Below are positions 11,324 to 64,000 of a stretch of DNA of 64,000 bases, in pieces. A program made the position numbers and the translations under genes. Under the pieces are notes generated by a model that saw only the letters and a list, made by a program, of their open reading frames with translations, did not search any database and was not told the DNA's origin. Source of the DNA: Escherichia coli (lineage in GTDB: Bacteria; Pseudomonadota; Gammaproteobacteria; Enterobacterales; Enterobacteriaceae); NCBI RefSeq assembly GCF_001677475.2, contig NZ_CP012497.1. The stretch is one strand, 5' to 3'. Positions within the stretch are counted from its first letter, which is position 1; each line of letters opens with the position of its first letter.

Positions 11324-11403
11324 TATGCAATAGTGAACGCTATGTAGACCACAAGTAACATAGGTTAAAATAACGAAAACCAGAGCAAATAATTGGTGAT
11401 TAC

Positions 11404-11688
11404 GTGGCAAGTATTGCAACAAAAGACAGCATTTGTTCGGGGCACGGAGGATTCCCATCCAGGCCTCCTGTAGAGAGTGAACCACTACTTAAAGTCAACG
11501 GAGTCGAAGTGTTAGTTGATGGTAAGCAATATGCACAGCATACCGATGGAAACAGTACGCACGGTGGGCAAGCTATATCAACCAGGGCATGGTTTACCGT
11601 CAATGGTAAAGGGATCGTATGCGTTGGTGACCCTGTTTCATGCGGCTCTACCGTAGCGTCAGGTGACGGCCTGGTTCAGGTAAGTTAG
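11404..11688 (+). CDS. PAAR-like small protein
   Basis: GTG start; Gly/Cys pattern KVNGVEVLVDGK and TVNGKGIVCVGDPVSCGSTVASGDGLVQV resembles PAAR repeats. Confidence 0.45.
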   Translation: MASIATKDSICSGHGGFPSRPPVESEPLLKVNGVEVLVDGKQYAQHTDGNSTHGGQAISTRAWFTVNGKGIVCVGDPVSCGSTVASGDGLVQVS

Positions 11689-11696
11689 GAGATATC

Positions 11697-12484
11697 ATGC
11701 TGGAAAAAGACTACCAATTATCCGCATATAAAAAATTGGCCGCAGCCGGTGGGATGAAAACACCAGGTGCCATAACATCGGCACGAAGCAGTGCTAACAC
11801 GGCAAAACAGCTTGCAGAAGAATTGACCGGATTAATTTTGGATACAATTGTCTATCCTGACACTATTACCAGCTATGTTTCAACGATCAGAACAACCACA
11901 ACCGGCTTAACGAACATTGGAGAACTGGCAACTAAGCACGCGGACCTGTTGGCTGGTTATGCAGATCTGTCAATGCTGCTTCAACTCGATATTGGTTGGG
12001 ATGTTTACTGCCGTGCTAATGAGCGAGAAGTTTCAGAACTGCCAATCTCTATTGCCATTGGTGATGTGACTATTACTAAATCGCTTGAGGACGCTGTAAA
12101 CGCGCTTAATACATCAAGTTTAGTCGCTGCTATGGGGAGATTAACCAGACCCTTAACACTGGCTCTGAAAGCTCGTCAGGCACTGGTTCAGGCGGCGGCA
12201 CTGCCATTCCCCCACCAGCACTAACAGAAAAGCAAATTGAAGCTCTGAAAGTAGCAACTGAACAGTTTGGGGGAGTTTTCAACCAAACAACAGCGCCCAC
12301 TGTTGCATTGCAACAGCAGTATGAACGGGCGAAGGAAAGCGCCAGCATAGCCATAACTGCTTATGGCCATGCTATTGGTACCGCGCTTGCGGAAGCATCA
12401 GCAAATAAGACCAGCACAGCCAGCGCAGTCGCCGCTTTGGTTCCTGATTCTGTTCTTGATGAATTAAACAAAGCGGCACAGTAA
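11697..12484 (+). CDS. hypothetical protein, frame broken at a G-run
   Basis: 175-aa ORF 11697-12224 continues in another frame to 12484 (GSGGGTAIPPPALTEKQIEALKVATEQ) if the G4 run at 12134-12137 is G5. Confidence 0.4.
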
Positions 12485-12523
12485 CAAAGGACTTCATTGA
12501 TAATTTTTCTTCAGGAGGAAGAC

Positions 12524-12946
12524 ATGTCATTCTTTTCTACGTTAAAAACAGCTTTGTCTTTGAAGGAGAAACTTGCTGCTACTGGTGTTCTTGTTCTGAT
12601 TTGCGCACTTGTTGGTGCTGGGTTTGCATGGGAACGTCATCAGCTAAAGCAAGCCATGGAGAAAATTGGCAGTCTTGATCAGGCTGTTAAGGAACGTGAT
12701 AAGTCAATAATGGATCTTAACCAGACCATTGAGACGATGAACAAAGCAGAGCAACATTTTCACAGCCAGGAAGTGAAAAATGAATCAGAACAAGCCAAAT
12801 ATGCTGACAGGCAAATGGAACGAAAAGCTGAAGTTCAGAAACAACTGGTTGCGGCGGGTAATGTTCGCCAGCGCATTCCTGCTGACACTCAGCGGTTGCT
12901 CCGGGAGTCGATCAGCGAATTTAACGCCGACGCCGACAAAGGTTAA
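12524..12946 (+). CDS. Rz-like inner-membrane spanin candidate
   Basis: Start MSFFSTLK; N-terminal TM segment (ATGVLVLICALVGAGFAW) followed by a charged coiled-coil region. Confidence 0.45.
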   Translation: MSFFSTLKTALSLKEKLAATGVLVLICALVGAGFAWERHQLKQAMEKIGSLDQAVKERDKSIMDLNQTIETMNKAEQHFHSQEVKNESEQAKYADRQMERKAEVQKQLVAAGNVRQRIPADTQRLLRESISEFNADADKG

Positions 12947-13112
12947 CCACCCTGCCCCCAAAAGTGCATTTATGTGCAGAATGCCAGAGTTTAGCAGTGA
13001 ATATTTTGATGATCTGCCAGCGTATATCCTCGATACAGAAACGATGCTGATGGGGATTAACAGGAAGAATCGCAACGTTAATGATTACAACCGCGCTATC
13101 AGCGGTAACTAA
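12861..13112 (+). CDS. Rz1-like outer-membrane lipoprotein candidate
   Basis: Out-of-frame ORF overlapping the 3' part of the Rz-like gene; lipobox MFASAFLLTLSGCSG; could instead be a P1 Mlp-type lipoprotein. Confidence 0.4.
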   Translation: MFASAFLLTLSGCSGSRSANLTPTPTKVNHPAPKSAFMCRMPEFSSEYFDDLPAYILDTETMLMGINRKNRNVNDYNRAISGN

Positions 13113-13123
13113 AAGGGATTTTT

Positions 13124-13516
13124 ATGTCTGATAAAGTAACAGTAAAGCAAACTATCAACAAAGCGACTTCAATCTACAAAATTGAGCACATCACTGTTGG
13201 CAAGCCAGGATCTGAACAATACCGTCATGCTTTCGAGCTTGCCGATCAGCTTGGTTTAAAACACCCGGATTGCATCGAGCATGTATTTCCGACCTATGCT
13301 GATGAGCAATGTACTCATGTTCTTACCGAAGAGGATTTTTTCAGCACTGAAGAACGAGAAGGCGTTGATCGTTGCATTGGTGTGATTTGCTCTTCAGTGA
13401 GTTATGAGTTATTCCCTAATGTCCATGAAAATGGTGGTATTGGATACCAATTCCTGTACGAAGGCGATGAGCTTAAATGTTATGAACATGGTCTTCTTAT
13501 CGAAAGCGTAGAATAA
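13124..13516 (+). CDS. hypothetical protein
   Basis: 130-aa ORF with a strong context, last gene before oriR. Confidence 0.4.
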   Translation: MSDKVTVKQTINKATSIYKIEHITVGKPGSEQYRHAFELADQLGLKHPDCIEHVFPTYADEQCTHVLTEEDFFSTEEREGVDRCIGVICSSVSYELFPNVHENGGIGYQFLYEGDELKCYEHGLLIESVE

Positions 13517-13549
13517 TACCCTTCCTTCCAACCGGCTATGTTGGCCGGT

Positions 13550-13780
13550 TTTTCACTTATCCACATTATCCACTGGGTAGATCCAATAATTAGGTCCATA
13601 CAGATCCCAATTAGATCCATATAGATCCCTGATCGTTGCAGGCCGCGTCACGTCTGGCTTAGAAGTGTATCGCGATGTGTGCTGGAGGGAAAACGATGTG
13701 TGCTGGAGGGATAAAAATGTGTGCTGACGGGTTGCTAATGTGTGCTGGCGGGATATAGGATGTGTGCTGACGGGAAAGCC
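13550..13780. promoter_or_regulatory. plasmid replication origin oriR (DnaA boxes, GATC cluster, incC iterons)
   Basis: Tandem TTATCCACA/TTATCCACT DnaA boxes at 13557-13576, GATC sites at 13611-13634, then 5 direct 19-bp iterons upstream of repA. Confidence 0.75.
13674..13778 (+). repeat. incC iterons (5 direct repeats, RepA binding sites)
   Basis: Five copies of ATGTGTGCTGGAGGGAAA-like 19-mers at about 21-bp spacing. Confidence 0.85.
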
Positions 13781-13833: not shown

Positions 13834-14694
13834 ATGAATCAATCATTTATCTCCGATATTCTTTACGCAGACATTGAAAGTAAGGCAAAAGAACTAACAG
13901 TTAATTCAAACAACACTGTGCAGCCTGTAGCGTTGATGCGCTTGGGGGTATTCGTGCCGAAGCCATCAAAGAGCAAAGGAGAAAGTAAAGAGATTGATGC
14001 CACCAAAGCGTTTTCCCAGCTGGAGATAGCTAAAGCCGAGGGTTACGATGATATTAAAATCACTGGTCCTCGACTCGATATGGATACTGATTTCAAAACG
14101 TGGATCGGTGTCATCTACGCGTTCAGCAAATACGGCTTGTCCTCAAACACCATCCAGTTATCGTTTCAGGAATTCGCTAAAGCCTGTGGTTTCCCCTCAA
14201 AACGTCTGGATGCGAAACTGCGTTTAACCATTCATGAATCACTTGGTCGCTTGCGTAACAAGGGTATCGCCTTTAAGCGCGGAAAAGATGCTAAAGGCGG
14301 CTATCAGACTGGTCTGCTGAAGGTCGGGCGTTTTGATGCTGACCTTGATCTGATAGAGCTGGAGGCTGATTCGAAGCTGTGGGAGCTGTTCCAGCTTGAT
14401 TATCGCGTTCTGTTGCAACACCACGCCTTGCGTGCCCTTCCGAAGAAAGAAGCTGCACAAGCCATTTACACTTTCATCGAAAGCCTTCCGCAGAACCCGT
14501 TGCCCCTATCGTTCGCGCGAATCCGTGAGCGCTTGGCTTTGCAGTCAGCTGTTGGCGAGCAAAACCGTATCATTAAGAAAGCGATAGAACAGCTTAAAAC
14601 AATCGGCTATCTCGACTGTTCAATTGAGAAGAAAGGCCGGGAAAGTTTTGTAATCGTCCATTCTCGCAATCCAAAGCTGAAACTTCCCGAATAA
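13834..14694 (+). CDS. repA: plasmid replication initiator RepA (P1 type)
   Basis: 286-aa ORF flanked by iteron arrays on both sides, the classic P1 R-replicon layout. Confidence 0.9.
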   Translation: MNQSFISDILYADIESKAKELTVNSNNTVQPVALMRLGVFVPKPSKSKGESKEIDATKAFSQLEIAKAEGYDDIKITGPRLDMDTDFKTWIGVIYAFSKYGLSSNTIQLSFQEFAKACGFPSKRLDAKLRLTIHESLGRLRNKGIAFKRGKDAKGGYQTGLLKVGRFDADLDLIELEADSKLWELFQLDYRVLLQHHALRALPKKEAAQAIYTFIESLPQNPLPLSFARIRERLALQSAVGEQNRIIKKAIEQLKTIGYLDCSIEKKGRESFVIVHSRNPKLKLPE

Positions 14695-30415: not shown

Positions 30416-30772
<357 letters not shown>

Positions 30773-30807
30773 GTTAGAAGCGCGCATATGGAAGTTATTC
30801 AAGATAA

Positions 30808-30849: not shown

Positions 30850-31587
30850 TCACTTCGGGTATGGCTGAATCCTGAATAGCTTAGTATTTAGTCGCTTTTT
30901 TGCGCGCTTGTTCAGGAATCTGATGTAGCGATACTGATTAAATTTGTGTACCACCGCCCGCTCCTTATTAGCCCGCAAATACTCGCCTCGTTGTCCTCCA
31001 CGCTTAATCGCGTTCATCGTTATCTCGTGATACCACTCGCCGTCCAGCTCGTAGAACGTGCTTTCATGGCTACCAATAAAATCAAAATTAGATGCCTGAT
31101 ACACAACACCTGCACGTCCGCAGCGTTCGTCTGCAAAGGACTGAACCCACTCCACTGATGGATACAGTAACCTGATGGTTTTCAGTGCGTAGCTGATAGC
31201 CCGTGATTCAGAGTTGCGGGGCATGTCGTCGTGTAACCACATGCGGTTCAGTTCCATATAGCCCCGGTTATCCGTTTCCAGCACGACCCGACGCCCTGAG
31301 TTGGGATTAAGGGCGTATCCCCACTGGAGAACGCCAACCAGATCACGTCCGCTGAATACCCCCAGATGCAACCAGGAGTTATTCACAAAACGGCGGGAAT
31401 AGTGCTTTGTCTGAATGATTGTGCGGGCCAGCCAGCAGGATATGGTTTCAACGCGCAGTTCCCTTGAACCATAGCCGACAATACGGCCTTCATACTCAAT
31501 AACGCAGGGTTTTGTAAGGATGCGTGATTTCTTCTCTTTTCCCACAATACAGCTCCGTGGGATGCTCCCGGGCACTCGACATGACAA
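30850..31587 (-). CDS. mom: Mom-like DNA modification protein
   Basis: ORF directly downstream of and overlapping a Com homologue, the Mu com-mom arrangement; true start probably downstream of 31587. Confidence 0.7.
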
Positions 31588-31803: not shown

Positions 31804-32393
31804 TTAATAACCGGGCGTTAACGCTCTTATATCGCTCAGTGTGGACAGCAGGGAAAGTTGCTCTTTCATCTCGCGCTGGCGTTCGTGGATTTTAAAGCCC
31901 TCCGCCACCATGGCCACCATCATGGCATCGTTCAGCGCAATAAGTTTCTCCCTGGTCAGTACGACGTTGTTATTATCCGCATCAGTCCAGAAAAATCCCT
32001 CCGGAAGCAGTCCGGCCTGCGCTGCTGCAACCACGGGGCAAGGCGTGACTGCGAGGTTTTTCCGCCATCAAAACGACGGCCATCAAACGTGAAAATAAAC
32101 TCAACGTTTTCCTGACTGTCGCGCCATGCCTCAATTTCCCGCCTTTTGGCATCCTTTGCCGCTGCAATAAGTTCCGGCGTGACGGTGAACGGGGCGATTT
32201 CGCCCCATTTCCCGCTTTGCAGCTCCTGCCAGATGTGCTGGCCTGTCGGGGCCATATCATCCTGTATGGCAGTATACAGGGCGAACTCCGTTTCACCTTC
32301 AAATAACACCTCGCAGTCAACCGCACCATTTTCAAGATAATGTGCGTTTCTGATACCTTTCACCGCTCTGATTTTCATGCCTGATTTCCTCAT
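31804..32393 (-). CDS. tail fibre assembly protein, frame broken at a T/A run near 32057-32061
   Basis: ORFs 31956-32393 and 31804-32034 are N- and C-terminal parts of one Tfa-like protein; an alternate frame reads KNLAVTPCPVVAAAQAGLLPEGFFW across the junction. Confidence 0.6.
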
Positions 32394-34684
32394 TACTCAA
32401 TGCGTACAAAAAGACCGATAAAGCCACGCTGAGTACCATAATTGTTACCCAGGCCCGAAAGCGCCGTGTAACGACCGGGGAAGTTGTATTCACCGGCACC
32501 GCCAATCACAACCTGCGGTGAGGATGCGTATGTCCCTGTATCACTAACCTGTGCACTCATGGCCAGAGGACCAAGACGGGAACCCGGCACAGTATCACCG
32601 AGTCCCAGAGAAGCATTTTCACCAAAACTTTCTCCCTGATATACCGCCATAATCGGCACACCGACGGCCGGGTATTGGTAATATGAGAACGGACCATTAC
32701 CGGCGGTTGAGGACATCAGATATGCCAGGGAGTTGCCGTCATACACAATAAGGCTTGATGTTGCATTCCAGCTGTTACCACTGTAGCGATAACGCATACA
32801 ATGTATGCTGTGCTCATCCTCGTAATACTGGTTGTAGTACAGCAGCGTTTTGAATTTACGCGCTGAGTCTGAACCATCGTTATCAGAGGGTGACCACATC
32901 ACATCAATGATACCGTTAAATTTCGTGGTGCCCACCAGCAGCGTGGAGGAGTCCGCAATACTGACCGCATAACGCCCCGGGGTGACTGTCTGCAGCCATA
33001 TAACGAAATCAGCCTGTCCGTTAAATGACAGAGCTTCGGCGCTGGTGAATGCCTGTCCAAACCCATACATCCCGGACAGGGCCAGCCTGCCCGGTGTGCG
33101 GTCACGGATATCACTCTGGGGTTCCATCGTCGCAGCCGTGCTCAGCTCAAGCTCCGTGCGCATGGCTTCAGCCGTGTCATGCGCCAGCAATGCGCGGCCC
33201 TTCTCTGACAGCAGAGACAGTGAGGCATTCCCGTCTGTATTGAAGTACAGAAGATTATCTGCCCGTTGCGTCAGTGCGCTGATTGCCGTTAAGACGTCAT
33301 TAAGCGGTTGTTTGCCTGCCAGCGCGTTTGTGATTGTCGTCGCAAAGTTCGGGTCATTGCCCAGCGCCGCTGCCAGCTCGTTCAGGGTGTCCAGAACTTC
33401 CGGCGATGAGCCAACCAGCGCAGCAAGCAGTTTGCGCACAAACGCTGCGTTCGCTGCTTCCAGACCGGCGGCATCATCCGGTGGGGTTGGGGTGGTTGGG
33501 GTGCCGGTGAAGGCCGGGCTGTCCAGTGGCGCTTTTGTTTTCGTCTCGTCCATGACGGTTTTGACAGCCTTTGGCGTGGCAGCCAGTTCCTCGCTGTCGT
33601 TGTCCGTATCACTACACAGTTGCACCAGACCTTTTTCTGTCGTGGAGGCATTTGTTGCATTCAGGTCATCAACTATCTGCTGCGCCTCATCCCTGTACTG
33701 TTTCGCTTCCTGCGCATTGTCTGCACCTGCATCCTGGCTGGCTTTAGCCTGTCGGGCGTATTCGGCGGCGCTGTTTTCATGCCCGAGTGCAGCATTTGCT
33801 GCATTTTCCGCGCTGGTTGCAGCTGATGATGCGGCATTATGATAAAGGCGGGCGCGTTCGGCGGCATCGACTGATTCGTCCCGCGCTGTGCCTGATGACT
33901 GTGCGCTGTTTTCTGCCTCACCCGCAAAACGTTCCGCATCACTGCGGGCTGTTACCGTTGCCTGCACATCCTGTGCGGTCTGCTGTGCGCTTTGTGCTGC
34001 ATTATCAGCGTGATTTTCCGCATTCTGTTCGCTTTGTGCGGCAGCTTTGGCACTGGCTTTTGCCTCGCCGGTCAGCGTTGCAGCATCAGCAAGTTTATCG
34101 ACCGCTTTCCGGACTATCGTGTCGGCATCCTTAACGGCCTGCTCTGCGCGGGCTGCATTCTGACTGGTTTCAGAGGCAAGCTCTTCAGCTTTCTGCACAT
34201 TGCCTGCAATTTCTTCTGCATCCTGCCGTATTTCCCCGGCGAGGGTTTCTGTATCCTGGCGGGCCTGTTCAGCCGCGTCCGCGTGCTCTCCGGCTTCTTC
34301 CGCGCTTTGCTGCGCCTGTTGCGCCAGTTCTTCGAATTTCTTCAGGGCTTCCGGGCGCAGGTCAATATCGGTTGCACCCAGAAAATCATTCAGTGAACCG
34401 TCCTGTGAATCTTCATAAACACGAATGACACCGATTTCTGAAAGGCGCTGTTCGCTTTGTGTCAGGCGAACGCTGTACACACCCGGCTGAACGGAAAAGT
34501 CGTACTCCCCGCTCTGTGTGGTTACGTGGCTGAAAACACCTTTCAGGATCCCTGCACGGTTGTGCAGGGAGGTCAGAGTAATGGTTGCGCCGCCCAGCGC
34601 TTCTCCCGTGGGCGTTTTAATCACACCTTTAAGCTGCGGCATCGGGACGCTCCGGCCAGTTGATGGCATTAAAGGAGGCTTCAT
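32393..34684 (-). CDS. side tail fibre protein (lambda Stf-like architecture)
   Basis: 763 aa; N-terminus like the Stf N-domain (GVIRVYEDSQDGSLNDFL), Ala/Ser/Glu-rich repeats, conserved blocks LAATPKAVKTVMDETKTKAPLDSPAFTGTPT and LNELAAALGNDPNFATTITNALAGKQP. Confidence 0.8.
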   Translation of the reverse strand: MKPPLMPSTGRSVPMPQLKGVIKTPTGEALGGATITLTSLHNRAGILKGVFSHVTTQSGEYDFSVQPGVYSVRLTQSEQRLSEIGVIRVYEDSQDGSLNDFLGATDIDLRPEALKKFEELAQQAQQSAEEAGEHADAAEQARQDTETLAGEIRQDAEEIAGNVQKAEELASETSQNAARAEQAVKDADTIVRKAVDKLADAATLTGEAKASAKAAAQSEQNAENHADNAAQSAQQTAQDVQATVTARSDAERFAGEAENSAQSSGTARDESVDAAERARLYHNAASSAATSAENAANAALGHENSAAEYARQAKASQDAGADNAQEAKQYRDEAQQIVDDLNATNASTTEKGLVQLCSDTDNDSEELAATPKAVKTVMDETKTKAPLDSPAFTGTPTTPTPPDDAAGLEAANAAFVRKLLAALVGSSPEVLDTLNELAAALGNDPNFATTITNALAGKQPLNDVLTAISALTQRADNLLYFNTDGNASLSLLSEKGRALLAHDTAEAMRTELELSTAATMEPQSDIRDRTPGRLALSGMYGFGQAFTSAEALSFNGQADFVIWLQTVTPGRYAVSIADSSTLLVGTTKFNGIIDVMWSPSDNDGSDSARKFKTLLYYNQYYEDEHSIHCMRYRYSGNSWNATSSLIVYDGNSLAYLMSSTAGNGPFSYYQYPAVGVPIMAVYQGESFGENASLGLGDTVPGSRLGPLAMSAQVSDTGTYASSPQVVIGGAGEYNFPGRYTALSGLGNNYGTQRGFIGLFVRIE

Positions 34685-51875: not shown

Positions 51876-53406
51876 AGTAAACCTCCCTCATTTTTCAGGC
51901 CGCGCGTCAGCTTCAGCTGGCGGCGCGCGTTGCGTTCTTCCGGTTTCGCCGGGCGGTTCAGACGGTGCAGTTCGTAACGGTGGCAGTCATCTTTACTGGC
52001 AAGGAAGCCCAGGAAAATGGCCACAGCGGCGTCGCCGTGACGTTTGTGACCGTCGCTGCCTCTGGTTCGTGAATCATCAATGCCGGGAACGCCACGCAGT
52101 AACTGAATGGCCCGAGGTCATTGATCACGTCTTCATGCTTCGGAAGGATCAGCTCATCATCTTCAAACGCCGCACGGAAACGGGGCATGTTTTCACGGTA
52201 AAACGCCACGGACAGCATCACCTGTTCCACCTCGTCGCCGTACCGCTCCGCCGCCTGTTCTGCCAGATACTGACCATTCCCCCGCGCATCCATTTTGATG
52301 CCGTCACGACGGGGCAGACGATCGCAAAGCCAGAACAGTACCTGCTCCTGCTGTTTAAACGGCACATTGGCAAGCTCAACCAGGAACGGCACCTCGCGGG
52401 TGGTGTCGTCGTTCACCGTCACCGGGGCCAGCACAGTCAGGTCACCCGAACGCGCAAAGTCTTCCCCCAGACAGTGGCGCAGGTTCTGTGGGAGTTTTTC
52501 CAGTTCAGGGCGCACCACCGTTTCCAGCCATTCCCGGATATCTGCCCGGCGCTGGCTTTCCGTCAGTGCGTTAAATTCCGGTGTGCCGGTAAAGCGCAAC
52601 ACTTTTCCGGTGCCACGGGCTGCACGTTCACGCATTGAGCGGGGGATATACGTGCCGCCGCCGTTTTTCGGGACGCAGTAATATTCCTCCAGGGCGTCTT
52701 CGCGGGTGGCGGTATTTCGCAGCAGGCCTTCTTTCCATTCCGCCTCGGCCTCCGGTGACCACTCCATGCCGCGTACCTGACAGATACGCCGGTACAGCCC
52801 GTCACTGCAGGCGTCATCCAGCGTGATGGTGTGAATACGGTAATCTTTTTTGCCTGCGCGGCTCTCCTGAATCAGCTGGTTAAACGGGTTGTCCACGCCG
52901 TCATGGGTGGAGATAAGGCGAACCTTACCGCCCCACGTGGTCAGTGGTGTGACCGCCTTGAGTACCTCATCCAGTTTTTCATGAAACGCCGCTTCGTCGA
53001 TGGTGACATTCCCCTGCATCCCGCGAATGTTGCCCGGATTGCTGGACAGCGCCTTGACCTTAAAACCGCTGGCGAAGTACACGACGAACGTCAGAATGTC
53101 CATGTCTTCGTCGGTGATCACTTCCTCGCGGATTTCTTCCGCTGCCGCATTAAACGCTTTCGCCCACATCGCTACGGCGTCGATAAATTCGCGGGCCATC
53201 TCCTTATTCGAACCGATATAAAAGTGATCGCGCCCGCCGTTTTCCTTCTTCAGTGATGCGGTCAGTGCTGCATCTGCCGCTTCCGCCCAGGTTAACCCGG
53301 TACGGCGTGATTTCTCGGCGATTTTCAGTTTTGAATCATCCGCCACCCAGCGTTTCTGATACGGCAGCAGAACATCGGATTCACTGAACGTGTTCATCTG
53401 TGTCAT
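51872..53406 (-). CDS. terminase large subunit (Mu gp28-like), frame broken near 52111-52113
   Basis: ATPase N-domain; the ORF-track C-terminus is out of frame, and the corrected frame gives ..GVPGIDDSRTRGSDGHKRHGDAAVAIF.. ending at a stop that overlaps the portal start. Confidence 0.8.
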
Positions 53407-56463: not shown

Positions 56464-57060
56464 TCACCCCCGCGTGGCGGACATGATGCCTGGAGGGGTA
56501 TCGATGATTTCCAGACAGGCGTCGGTCAGCTTTTCCATGCGGTTAAACCAGCCGTTCAGGTATTTGCCCTGGGCGGGTTTGGACTTGATGATGTCGGCAT
56601 AAAAGCGGGAACGACGGACAATGCAGCGGGCCAGCAGCCAGTCCGGGGTGGACAGGCTCACGGCCTTACGGGTACGGGGGCCGATGATGCCGTCAGCATC
56701 CACATCCGCGGCTTCCTGCAAAATCCTGATAGCTTTTTTAACGCCATGCTGAACCGCCGCATCGAACACAAACATCGCCACGCCATCAGGCCACTGGTCA
56801 CATCCGGCAGGCAGCCAGTAATCGCGCCAGTAAATCTGAGCAACCTGTTCGCGGGTTAAATCCCTGATGCGGGTATCCGGTTTGCCGTCGCCGTTGACAT
56901 CGGTTTTGCCGTCAGTCACACCGTCGCGGCGGTCAGAAATGCCGTATTTGGTTTCACCGCCACGGTCAGTGGGGTCATTGGCATAGACGCCTTCGATATC
57001 GGGACGCAGAATGAAATTCAGCGCATGTTCAAAGGCCGGGGAGAATTTTTGATTTTCCAT
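56464..57060 (-). CDS. lys: endolysin (GH108-like catalytic domain with peptidoglycan-binding C-terminus)
   Basis: 198 aa with GVYANDPTDRGGETKYGIS and ADGIIGPRTRKAV motifs. Confidence 0.8.
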   Translation of the reverse strand: MENQKFSPAFEHALNFILRPDIEGVYANDPTDRGGETKYGISDRRDGVTDGKTDVNGDGKPDTRIRDLTREQVAQIYWRDYWLPAGCDQWPDGVAMFVFDAAVQHGVKKAIRILQEAADVDADGIIGPRTRKAVSLSTPDWLLARCIVRRSRFYADIIKSKPAQGKYLNGWFNRMEKLTDACLEIIDTPPGIMSATRG

Positions 57061-57145: not shown

Positions 57146-57595
57146 TTAAGGGCGTCGTGGTGGACGACGAACGGGGTGAGGCAGGTTCGGGGAGGGGTAA
57201 AACAAATCCGGCTGGTATTTATTGCGCTCCAGACGTCGCATCCGTTTGATGGCCTTGTAGACGGTTTTATACGTCACCCCGTAACGCTGAACCAGTTCAG
57301 GAATATTATGACCGTTAAAATCACGCCAGATACGCATATCCCGGACAAGATTCTCCAGAATATTCCCCCTCGGAACATAAACCTGCATCCCGCCGATATG
57401 GCGACAAATCGCCACAACCAGCTCAAGGGAATGAGCAGGGTCTGCGCCAATCCGGGCCAGCTCTTTACGCAGCAGTGCGTTCAGTTCAGAAAGTAACGCC
57501 GGATAAGCGGTGTTTTCCTGGTAATCATGAAGATATTCCAGAACGCTGTCGTCCCGAAGGTCTTCGAATAAATCCTGCTCTTTCATCTGTTTCAT
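57146..57595 (-). CDS. mor: middle operon regulator Mor (Mor/C family transcription activator)
   Basis: 149 aa, colinear with Mu Mor as recalled (DPAHSLELVVAICRHIGGMQVYVPRG, VTYKTVYKAIKRMRRL). Confidence 0.8.
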   Translation of the reverse strand: MKQMKEQDLFEDLRDDSVLEYLHDYQENTAYPALLSELNALLRKELARIGADPAHSLELVVAICRHIGGMQVYVPRGNILENLVRDMRIWRDFNGHNIPELVQRYGVTYKTVYKAIKRMRRLERNKYQPDLFYPSPNLPHPVRRPPRRP

Positions 57596-62676: not shown

Positions 62677-64000
62677 TCAGGCCAGCGGATCATCTTCTTC
62701 CTGCATGGCAAAAAGTTTTTGCATCCCCAGTCTGAAATCGCGTTCAAATTCTTCGTCATGCTCTTCTTCATATTCCGGTTGCTGAACGGCCACCACATTA
62801 CCAACCGGGCGATAAACATTATCCAGCCAGGGTTCAGCCTGTTTGTGTTCCAGAATCTGAATACCTTCATCTTCAGCATCGCGAATTTTTTCCTCAGCGC
62901 GTTTGCGCATCCCTTTAATACGCTGCTGTTGTTTGTGATATTCCGCACTGACAGGGAAGGCTGCGCGTTTATTGCCGTTCCATATCGCCTCACAGATAAA
63001 GCTGCCGTCCTTGCGACGTACCGTAATTCGCTCGGCGTCATGAATGTCATAACTGATAAGCACTTTGCGACCGTGTTCGTCACGCAGCTCCGGCGCGTAA
63101 TAAATATTGCCAAGCCATTTGATTTCACAGCGTTTTACCGGACGCTCCACCATCGGGCGGAACATGTCGCGCAGCTCAAGATCACTCAGCCACTCAATTT
63201 CGGTGTCTTCTTCTGCCAGGCGTTTTTTTCTGAACTCTGCCGGGCTGTAATGCCGCCCGTTCGGTTTCATAGGCAGCTCAGAATGCGGGCGGTTGTTGTA
63301 CCATTCCACGCCTTCACGAATAGCCTCAATAAGCTCCGCCCACGATGGTAGCTCGCGCATTGCAGCTTTCTGGCGGTCGTTCAGAGGCTTGTCCTGTTGC
63401 AGGGCGTTAAACGCTGAACGCAGATCACGGTTAAGTACACGCAACGATTCCCGGTCAGCACCCTTGCCAAAATAGGTGCGATACCTCCTGGCTATACGCA
63501 TCGGCAGTGTCCGGTTCAGGCGTTCAATAATGCCGCGCCCCTGTGGATTACCGGCAATACCTGTTGGGTGTTTAATCCCCAGGCGGGCAGAATACCCACG
63601 ACCTCTTTGTCAAGCATGTCAGCCGTTTCACCAGAACCGTTATCCGAGTAATACAGGAACGGTTTTCCGTGGTTGCGAATGCCGTGCTGTATCGCTCCGG
63701 CAACGGCGAAAACGTTCTCGGCAAGATCAAGACTCCAGCCAACAACAAACCGGGTTCCACCGTCGATCACAAACGTGACTTCTGGTGAGAATGGACGCCC
63801 GTGGATCGGATGCGCACATTTCAGCTTCATACCGTGACCGTCACCAATCCAGACATAATTCACCGGCATAGCTGTCCAGTCGCGGCGGGTGAATCCTTCA
63901 AGCTGACGGTATTCACTGCCGGTAACACGGCCTTTTTGTTTCACCACTTCCGGCAATTTCTTCATGGCATAACGAACCACATCGTAAGAGGGCATCACCT
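62677..64000 (-). CDS. A: transposase A (Mu A-like), 5' end beyond the window, frame broken at a C-run (63577-63580)
   Basis: ORF 63516-63998 carries the DDE catalytic core (YYSDNGSGETAD) and ORF 62677-63501 the C-terminal domain; an alternate frame reads GIKHPTGIAGNPQGRGIIERLNRTLPMRIARRY across the junction. Confidence 0.85.

Follow-up and report, generated by a model that had tools for sequence, protein, structure and literature searches.

Does a pair of genes that overlap out of frame next to the replication origin of a P1-like phage-plasmid encode the two subunits of a spanin, and what connects such a pair to lysis? The question arose in a window of 64,000 nucleotides of Escherichia coli DNA (the whole stretch that we analysed, from contig NZ_CP012497.1), for which a preliminary description had proposed an Rz/Rz1-like gene pair. 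This pair is ppfA/mlp of phage P1, which is already known and catalogued as the predicted overlapped two-component spanin of that phage; spanins disrupt the outer membrane at the end of lysis. On the features described below, we consider it very probable that the two genes form a two-component spanin of the overlapped type belonging to a P1-like phage-plasmid, a function that is predicted from sequence. The finding matters little beyond correct annotation, in a model phage whose lysis system is unusually scattered; stating which ORF is which, and where Mlp is likely to start, helps to annotate P1-like phage-plasmids.

The gene pair lies on an interrupted P1 backbone

Bases 1 to about 30,723 of the window are collinear with phage P1/P7, in reverse orientation and at 96–98% identity, and correspond to P1 coordinates from roughly 75.2 kb down to 46,293. 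The RepA protein encoded here (13834–14694) is 100% identical to P1 RepA, and the gene pair lies just upstream of oriR/repA, within the P1 string upfC-upfB-ppfA-mlp-upfA, all of it on the plus strand of the window. The string begins with upfC (11404–11688), in whose product we found a PAAR motif, and upfB (11697–12484), both in the order and on the strand that they have in P1. Directly upstream of ppfA, upfB is frameshifted by a 1-nt deletion in a G-run (12134–12137); this indel could be a sequencing error. ppfA (12524–12946) and mlp (12780–13112) are followed by upfA (13124–13516), whose product is 96% identical to P1 UpfA, and by a terminator-like hairpin (13528–13550, plus strand; nine pairs and then a T-run) that closes the gene string before oriR/repA. 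The homology to P1 breaks off inside pmgC at about 30,723, and a Mu-like prophage comes next, with Mom (30850–31587), a GH108 endolysin of its own (56464–57060) and a Mor-like activator (57146–57595), all on the minus strand, as well as tail fibre genes and a terminase.

The locus therefore shares with ppfA/mlp of P1/P7 (the ‘P1’ family of SpaninDB) its position, its neighbours (upfC-upfB-ppfA-mlp-upfA-oriR-repA), its Shine-Dalgarno sequences, its lipobox region and its overlap, and it differs from P1 in the frameshift in upfB and in the interruption of the P1 backbone by the Mu-like prophage. The preliminary description set the pair apart from the remaining lysis genes. That holds for reference P1, in which ppfA/mlp lie at 63.35–63.94 kb, lyz/lydD/lydE at 20.0–20.9 kb and lydA/B/C at 30.4–31.5 kb, so that 32–43 kb separate the pair from the other lysis genes. 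It is not something that can be seen in the window, where a tblastn search found neither lyz nor any of lydA-E. The only other recognizable lysis gene in the window is that of the GH108 endolysin, and it belongs to a different element, because the P1 homology ends in pmgC and the Mu-like prophage follows.

An interrupted backbone invites the reading that a defective prophage carries the two genes as inert cargo, intact but unused. Besides the break inside pmgC and the adjoining Mu-like prophage, the 1-nt deletion in upfB fits this reading, as do several ORFs in public databases in which a 1-nt deletion has fused PpfA to Mlp; these fusions show that the locus decays in some plasmids. Here, however, both ORFs are full length and their products are 98–99% identical to the P1 proteins, the upfB indel could be an artefact of sequencing, and purifying selection is clear across the family (below). 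We therefore give this reading little credence; it also concerns the state of one copy and not the identity of the genes, for which a spanin assignment is strongly favoured.

ppfA encodes a predicted inner-membrane subunit

The first gene, ppfA, encodes a 140-aa protein that is 99.3% identical to P1 PpfA, with the substitution I45M. Its Shine-Dalgarno sequence, AGGAGG (12513–12518, plus strand), lies 5 nt 5′ of the ATG at 12524; AGGAGG or GGAGG is found at the same site in three diverged homologues (L005–L007, described below), and SpaninDB gives the same sequence for P1 (Kongari 2018, PMC6139136). In PpfA, Kyte-Doolittle hydropathy over 19 residues peaks in the window that begins at residue 17 (mean 2.35), and we read a transmembrane segment at residues 17–36 (codons 12572–12631). 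The net charge of its N-terminal flank is +2, implying by prediction an N-in/C-out, type II topology. The remaining 104 residues are charged, rich in Q and free of Cys. An AlphaFold2 model built on nine homologues places a helix at residues 13–110, a break at 111–119 and a second helix at 120–137, with a low to moderate mean pLDDT of 65. These predictions agree with the preliminary description of this ORF, which gave it an N-terminal TM anchor and a coiled coil, and PpfA is a predicted i-spanin, the inner-membrane component.

mlp overlaps ppfA in the +1 frame and encodes a predicted lipoprotein

The second gene, mlp, encodes a predicted o-spanin (an outer-membrane lipoprotein) of 110 aa as annotated, which is 98.2% identical to P1 Mlp, with the substitutions S7N and V32A. 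Its start is offset by 256 nt from that of ppfA, which places it in the +1 frame relative to ppfA, and the ORF coordinates define a dual-coding overlap of 167 nt (12780–12946, plus strand) in which ppfA is read in frame 0 and mlp in frame +1. Beyond the ppfA stop, mlp continues for another 166 nt. The preliminary description was right that a second ORF overlaps the first in another frame, but the overlap takes up the 3′ two-fifths of ppfA and not its 3′ half, and the architecture is not the ‘embedded’ one that had been suggested. Because mlp runs past the ppfA stop, the pair belongs to the overlapped class as defined by Kongari et al.

Direct reading of the sequence gives the lipobox L-S-G-C (12888–12899), in the context FLLTLSG-C, with Cys40 as the predicted lipidated residue. 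The residue at +2 is Ser, which favours sorting to the outer membrane. A lipobox protein in the second frame had been anticipated, and the motif is present not only here but in every homologue (LNGC, LVAC, LSAC, LSAC and LSSC). The predictions support anchoring of PpfA in the inner membrane and, for Mlp, a lipoprotein signal for the outer membrane. Alignment of the Mlp family further reveals an N-terminal stretch rich in Pro and, towards the C-terminus, a conserved motif. Cys66 (codon 12975–12977, plus strand), the sole periplasmic cysteine of the pair, is invariant in all seven family members and is aligned with a Cys of P2 LysC.

Both reading frames are conserved and constrained

To what extent is the +1-frame ORF maintained as the sequence diverges? 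At least 655 enterobacterial plasmid records contain the locus, and five diverged lineages were recovered (L005, L006, L007, L008 and L011). L005–L008 are clearly P1-like phage-plasmids, the first three having 62–69% nucleotide identity to P1 across this region, and L011 is on a 1.2-kb contig. All five keep the +1-frame lipoprotein ORF, which in each lineage begins within the 3′ portion of the ppfA counterpart and passes its stop.

Selection was measured by Nei-Gojobori counts. In the segment that is mlp only (159 nt), synonymous sites are saturated and dN is 0.13–0.22, which, in the comparisons that allow a ratio, gives a dN/dS of about 0.10; read in either of its other two frames, the same segment gives values above 1. 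The part that is ppfA only has a dN/dS of about 0.2. Within the overlap, two zones can be distinguished. Before mlp codon 24, substitutions are synonymous for ppfA and replace residues in mlp (dN 0.48–0.78). From mlp codon 24 on, synonymous divergence in the ppfA frame is 0.45–0.8, compared with saturation elsewhere, as counted on only about 24 synonymous sites; such a drop is expected if both frames are constrained. The lipoprotein ORF therefore has conserved homologues, and they are under purifying selection.

These data bear directly on the idea that the +1-frame ORF is open by chance and not a gene. This idea draws on the behaviour of gene callers, which often skip the ORF or cut it to a fragment of 46–65 aa that lacks the lipobox, and on the first 23 codons, which show no constraint at the protein level. 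It is refuted by the contrast between a dN/dS of about 0.10 in the mlp-only segment and values above 1 in its other two frames, by the retention of the ORF, the lipobox and Cys66 across lineages at 62–69% nucleotide identity, and by homology to P2 LysC (next section); we regard its likelihood as negligible and treat mlp as a gene.

PpfA and Mlp are related to LysB and LysC of phage P2

We next consider which known proteins the pair resembles. PpfA matches the profile phrog_89 (‘Rz-like spanin’) with an E-value of 1.2e-25 over positions 3–137 of 143, and Mlp matches phrog_30284 (2e-77) and phrog_456 (4e-5), both of which carry the same description. The same profiles recognize the spanin proteins of phage P2, its equivalents of Rz and Rz1: LysB matches phrog_89 (5.8e-61), and LysC matches phrog_456 (1.7e-31) and phrog_30284 (5e-4). 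In a pairwise BLASTP comparison, Mlp and P2 LysC are 37% identical across 68 aa (E=5e-8). The best NCBIfam matches of PpfA and Mlp are likewise the P2 LysB and LysC models, both below threshold: PpfA scores 19.0 bits against a cut-off of 92.75 for TIGR03495 (phage_LysB), and Mlp scores 14.3 bits against a cut-off of 27 for NF038368 (P2_Rz1). An hhalign comparison of the PpfA alignment with a single P2 LysB sequence was not significant (probability 2%), and the PpfA–LysB link thus rests on the PHROG and NCBIfam profile matches. In Pfam at E<=1, no Rz or Rz1 family was matched; PpfA gave weak coiled-coil noise only and Mlp gave nothing. In the absence of a Pfam match of any kind beyond that noise, the Rz and Rz1 models, which we take to be PF03245 and PF06085, are among those unmatched. 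The profile and pairwise matches indicate that PpfA/Mlp and the LysB/LysC pair of P2 are related but diverged, with homology at the level of the family. An alignment of the two proteins with non-lysis P1 proteins would have argued the other way; what they align with are lysis proteins.

Searches for further relatives returned to P1-like elements. A tblastn search of 50,697 phage records with PpfA found P1-like phages only, and word-indexed protein searches with Mlp and PpfA found the P1-like family only, with many truncated or fused gene calls. When a PpfA profile was run as an HMM against 1.84 billion representatives, two further, more distant full-length homologues (P0101 and P0107) came to light, the rest being coiled-coil noise; P0101 has P1-type surroundings, and the contig of P0107 is too short to tell. 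Every PpfA/Mlp homologue with enough flanking DNA sits in the same P1-type, oriR-proximal neighbourhood. Since all homologues that can be judged share this one neighbourhood, the P1-like family taken alone offers no independent link to a lysis cassette. Homology to P2 LysB/LysC, together with the location of that pair in a cassette, supplies the link that the P1-like family cannot.

The likeness to the P2 pair extends to gene and protein architecture. The i-spanins are of nearly equal length (140 aa for PpfA, 141 aa for LysB); lysC, like mlp, lies in the +1 frame of its partner, begins in the 3′ part of that gene and runs past its stop, with an overlap of 146 nt as against 167 nt; and the 68 aa over which Mlp and LysC align include the signal peptide, a stretch rich in Pro and a Cys present in both. 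LysB and LysC are encoded in the lysis cassette Y-K-lysA-lysB-lysC, whereas the P1 pair is far removed from the other lysis genes, and LysC has nothing that corresponds to the C-terminal half of Mlp (DDLPAYILD...INRKNRNVN.YN).

The pair has the features of catalogued two-component spanins

Five of the features that mark a two-component spanin (Summer 2007, Kongari 2018) are found here. PpfA is predicted to cross the inner membrane once, near its N-terminus, in type II orientation, and its periplasmic domain is mainly alpha-helical, with two helices and a linker (AlphaFold2, mean pLDDT 65). Mlp has a lipobox Cys and no Asp at +2. mlp overlaps ppfA, an arrangement that the class allows alongside an embedded gene and one that follows immediately after. 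The pair contains at least one periplasmic Cys, that of Mlp, as do 507 of 528 two-component spanin systems. A further feature is usual but not obligatory, namely a place in a lysis cassette with holin and endolysin genes; ppfA/mlp lie outside such a cassette.

Existing annotation agrees with this assignment. SpaninDB (PMC6139136) lists the P1 pair as ‘ovl’, with the i-spanin gp064 (140 aa, a 104-aa periplasmic domain and no periplasmic Cys) and the o-spanin gp063 (110 aa, a 71-aa mature form, TLSG-C and one periplasmic Cys). For P1 Mlp it records a LipoP site at 39, no Prosite lipobox match and the remark “Too long signal sequence”. Bednarek 2022 (PMC9025707) likewise describes ppfA and mlp as the spanin genes of P1, partly overlapping and in an operon away from those of lysis otherwise known in P1, and attributes their identification to Summer 2007, from predicted features; in that paper, the labels of o- and i-spanin are swapped. 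The RefSeq product name of P1 Mlp is “Rz-like spanin”. All three sources thus agree with an Rz/Rz1-like pair. Neither gene is mentioned in one P1 transcriptome paper or in one P1 mutagenesis paper. The preliminary description had allowed that the lipoprotein could alternatively be P1 mlp. The gene is indeed mlp, but this is no alternative: a reading of ‘mlp instead of Rz1-like’ is rejected because both names denote one gene.

The pair can also be compared with spanins of lambda and T4. With Rz/Rz1 of phage lambda, the prototype of two-component spanins, it shares an inner-membrane protein of type II topology whose periplasmic domain is helical, a small +1-frame outer-membrane lipoprotein and a periplasmic Cys capable of forming a disulfide. 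It differs in that Rz1 is fully embedded, whereas ppfA and mlp merely overlap, and in that lambda has three intermolecular disulfides (Rz C99, Rz C152, Rz1 C29), whereas here the periplasmic part of PpfA is free of Cys and that of Mlp contains a single one. The i-spanin of T4 PseT.3/PseT.2 likewise lacks a periplasmic Cys, and pseT.3/pseT.2 provide a precedent for spanin genes that are unlinked. In T4, however, the two genes are separated and do not overlap, the o-spanin has two essential Cys, and PseT.3/PseT.2 complements lambda Rz/Rz1, whereas the function of the P1 pair is a prediction.

A proposed mode of action, and an alternative outside lysis

By analogy with lambda Rz/Rz1, we predict that the N-terminal helix of PpfA would lie in the inner membrane with its N-terminus inside, and that its helical domain of about 104 residues would project into the periplasm. 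Mlp would be exported, lipidated on the lipobox Cys and cleaved, and its Ser at +2 would direct it to the inner leaflet of the outer membrane, a step that follows the general Lol sorting rule. The periplasmic domains of the two proteins would then bind one another and span the periplasm through the murein mesh, with Mlp probably forming homodimers through its single conserved Cys66. Once the holin-triggered SAR-endolysin Lyz had destroyed the murein, the PpfA/Mlp complexes would cluster and collapse, and this collapse would fuse or rupture the outer membrane and so release the virions. In this scheme the localization of the proteins, the formation of the complex, its timing and the disruption of the membrane are all inferred from the analogy.

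Might the pair instead be an envelope module with a role apart from lysis, such as exclusion, envelope remodelling or plasmid maintenance, that is expressed from sigma-70 promoters next to oriR and not late? Its setting, between the PAAR gene upfC and oriR/repA and far from lyz and lydA-E, would suit such a role. The promoters that the P1 record places upstream of the pair are weak, predicted sigma-70 promoters within upfB, and none is a late promoter. Our own scan with the three annotated P1 late promoters as templates found, ahead of upfC, a single site with two mismatches (11353); nine such matches are scattered over the window, and we do not count this one as evidence. A generic sigma-70 scan gave fewer matches than shuffled sequence. 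The names first given to the genes in P1, ‘possible periplasmic function’ and ‘membrane lipoprotein precursor’, do not commit them to lysis. In a genome-wide P1 CRISPRi screen, ppfA (1.3, 1.2) and mlp (0.24, 0.19) were non-essential for plaquing.

Several observations speak against a role outside lysis. Spanins are non-essential for lysis in shaken laboratory cultures (Bednarek 2022, PMC9025707), so a non-essential CRISPRi score does not discriminate between the two readings. Both proteins are homologous to LysB/LysC, and the unusual +1 overlapped geometry is kept. The gene string also offers a hint about timing. We take the product of T4 ORF 5.4 to be the tip of the tail spike. The PAAR protein with which the string begins is 31% identical to that product according to the P1 record, and this likeness suggests a virion-related function and late expression. 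Taking these points together, we judge a non-lysis role to be improbable and favour a spanin made for the lysis of the host by the P1-like element.

The start of mlp

The annotated start of mlp gives a signal peptide of 39 residues. Upstream of this distal ATG (12780) is a Shine-Dalgarno-like AGGA (12768–12771, plus strand), and AGGA, AGGAGG or AAGAGG is found 8–10 nt 5′ of the ATG in all lineages compared; the same Shine-Dalgarno sequence is listed in SpaninDB (PMC6139136). The conservation of both elements is ambiguous, because they coincide with conserved PpfA codons (Q-E and D/N-D/E).

A candidate proximal start is TTG at 12849–12851 (plus strand), from which translation would yield a canonical lipoprotein signal of 16 residues, M-RRVMFASAFLLTLSG-C. 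The codon aligned with it is ATG in L005–L007, TTG in P1 and L008, and TTA in L011, and it is aligned with Met1 of P2 LysC. The 23 codons that lack constraint in the mlp frame are those upstream of this TTG. These patterns suggest that the proximal TTG may be the main start of Mlp translation, or a second one, which could explain why SpaninDB flags the signal sequence as too long. If both starts are used, the two precursors could differ in their export kinetics, in a dual-start device like that of holins. A separate point is that, with no late promoter annotated upstream in P1, sigma-70 promoters might drive synthesis of the spanin complexes before the late lysis genes act. We offer these proposals, on the start of Mlp and on the timing of the spanin, as tentative and rather doubtful.

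Names for the two proteins are inconsistent in public records, where they appear, for example, as PpfA, hypothetical protein, ‘endopeptidase Rz’, ‘outer membrane lytic protein’ and an ‘Rz1’ of 46 aa without a lipobox.

Distribution of the ppfA/mlp locus and its flanking genes

The locus encoding the predicted i-spanin PpfA and o-spanin Mlp is widespread. By blastn, 12524-13112 has matches in 655 PLSDB plasmid records, and in 609 of these the match is close to full length. Escherichia accounts for most records (588), followed by Salmonella (50) and Klebsiella (10). In NZ_CP100532.1, a 102-kb plasmid of E. coli of chicken origin, identity is 100% across the 589 nt. Both genes are also retained in diverged P1-like plasmids, where mlp is followed by a Phage_gp49_66 (PF13876) gene (4209-4562 in L005, 4197-4562 in L007 and 6864-7226 in L008) that encodes a protein of 117-121 aa and not by a UpfA homologue. 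In the window, in contrast, the slot 3′ of mlp holds UpfA, of 130 aa. This slot is thus variable, with ppfA and mlp themselves retained.

Upstream of ppfA, a G-run in upfB (11697-12484) at 12134-12137 is 1 nt shorter than in P1 and MH422554 (GGGG in the window versus GGGGG in MH422554), and this deletion splits the gene into ORFs of 175 aa and 58 aa. Either upfB is a pseudogene here, directly 5′ of ppfA, or the shorter G-run is a homopolymer sequencing error.

Timing of expression

The string of same-strand genes that includes ppfA and mlp begins with upfC (11404-11688), which encodes a PAAR-motif protein (Pfam, 8.5e-6; phrog_281, 2e-30), and the P1 record describes UpfC as 31% identical to the product of T4 ORF 5.4. 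upfC is likely a virion spike-tip gene, and its position at the head of the string hints that the spanin pair is expressed late. The element AAGTAACATAGGTTAAAAT at 11353-11371 (+), 33 nt upstream of upfC, is similar to the P1 late-promoter layout (a -22 box plus a -10), with 2 mismatches in the box. Because nine late-promoter-like matches of comparable quality occur across the window, AAGTAACATAGGTTAAAAT is not significant alone; the P1 record annotates no late promoter at this site.

PpfA-Mlp fusions and misannotation in public sources

Several distinct PpfA-Mlp fusion proteins of 193-195 aa are present in public protein clusters (P0066, P0038, P0031, P0002 and P0010), some of which contain 18-31 member sequences. 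The point of frame switching differs among them: in one it lies at an A5 run just 5′ of the distal mlp ATG (...QEVK joined to MNQNK), in another between RLLR and SRSANL, and in a further one between ADADK and VNHP. This pattern is consistent with single-base deletions at any point of the overlap, each of which would inactivate ppfA and mlp together. The fusions could be genuine decay or assembly errors.

Annotation of the locus also contains errors. MH422554, MH445380 and MH445381 carry a 46-aa ‘outer membrane lipoprotein Rz1’ (2169-2309 in L002, from MH422554) whose start lies 3′ of the lipobox, the JL22 record names PpfA ‘endopeptidase Rz’, and PGAP records mostly give ‘hypothetical protein’. 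The introduction of Bednarek 2022 (PMC9025707) assigns ppfA as the o-spanin and mlp as the i-spanin; these labels are reversed.

A Mu-like prophage apparently inserted in the late sit operon

P1 homology ends within pmgC at P1 coordinate 46293 (window junction ~30723-30807), where the window has a 110-aa ORF (30440-30772) versus the 567-nt pmgC CDS annotated in P1. From there to the window end at 64000 lies a Mu-like prophage. On the minus strand, 30850-31587 encodes a Mom family protein, 32393-34684 a tail fibre, 51958-53406 the large terminase, 56464-57060 a GH108 endolysin and 57146-57595 a Mor-like activator. The prophage also has a gam/kil region at ~59-61.6 kb. The second Mu end is outside the window. 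The late sit operon of the P1-like plasmid appears to have been a transposition target of the Mu-like phage, and such an insertion would probably cripple P1 morphogenesis.
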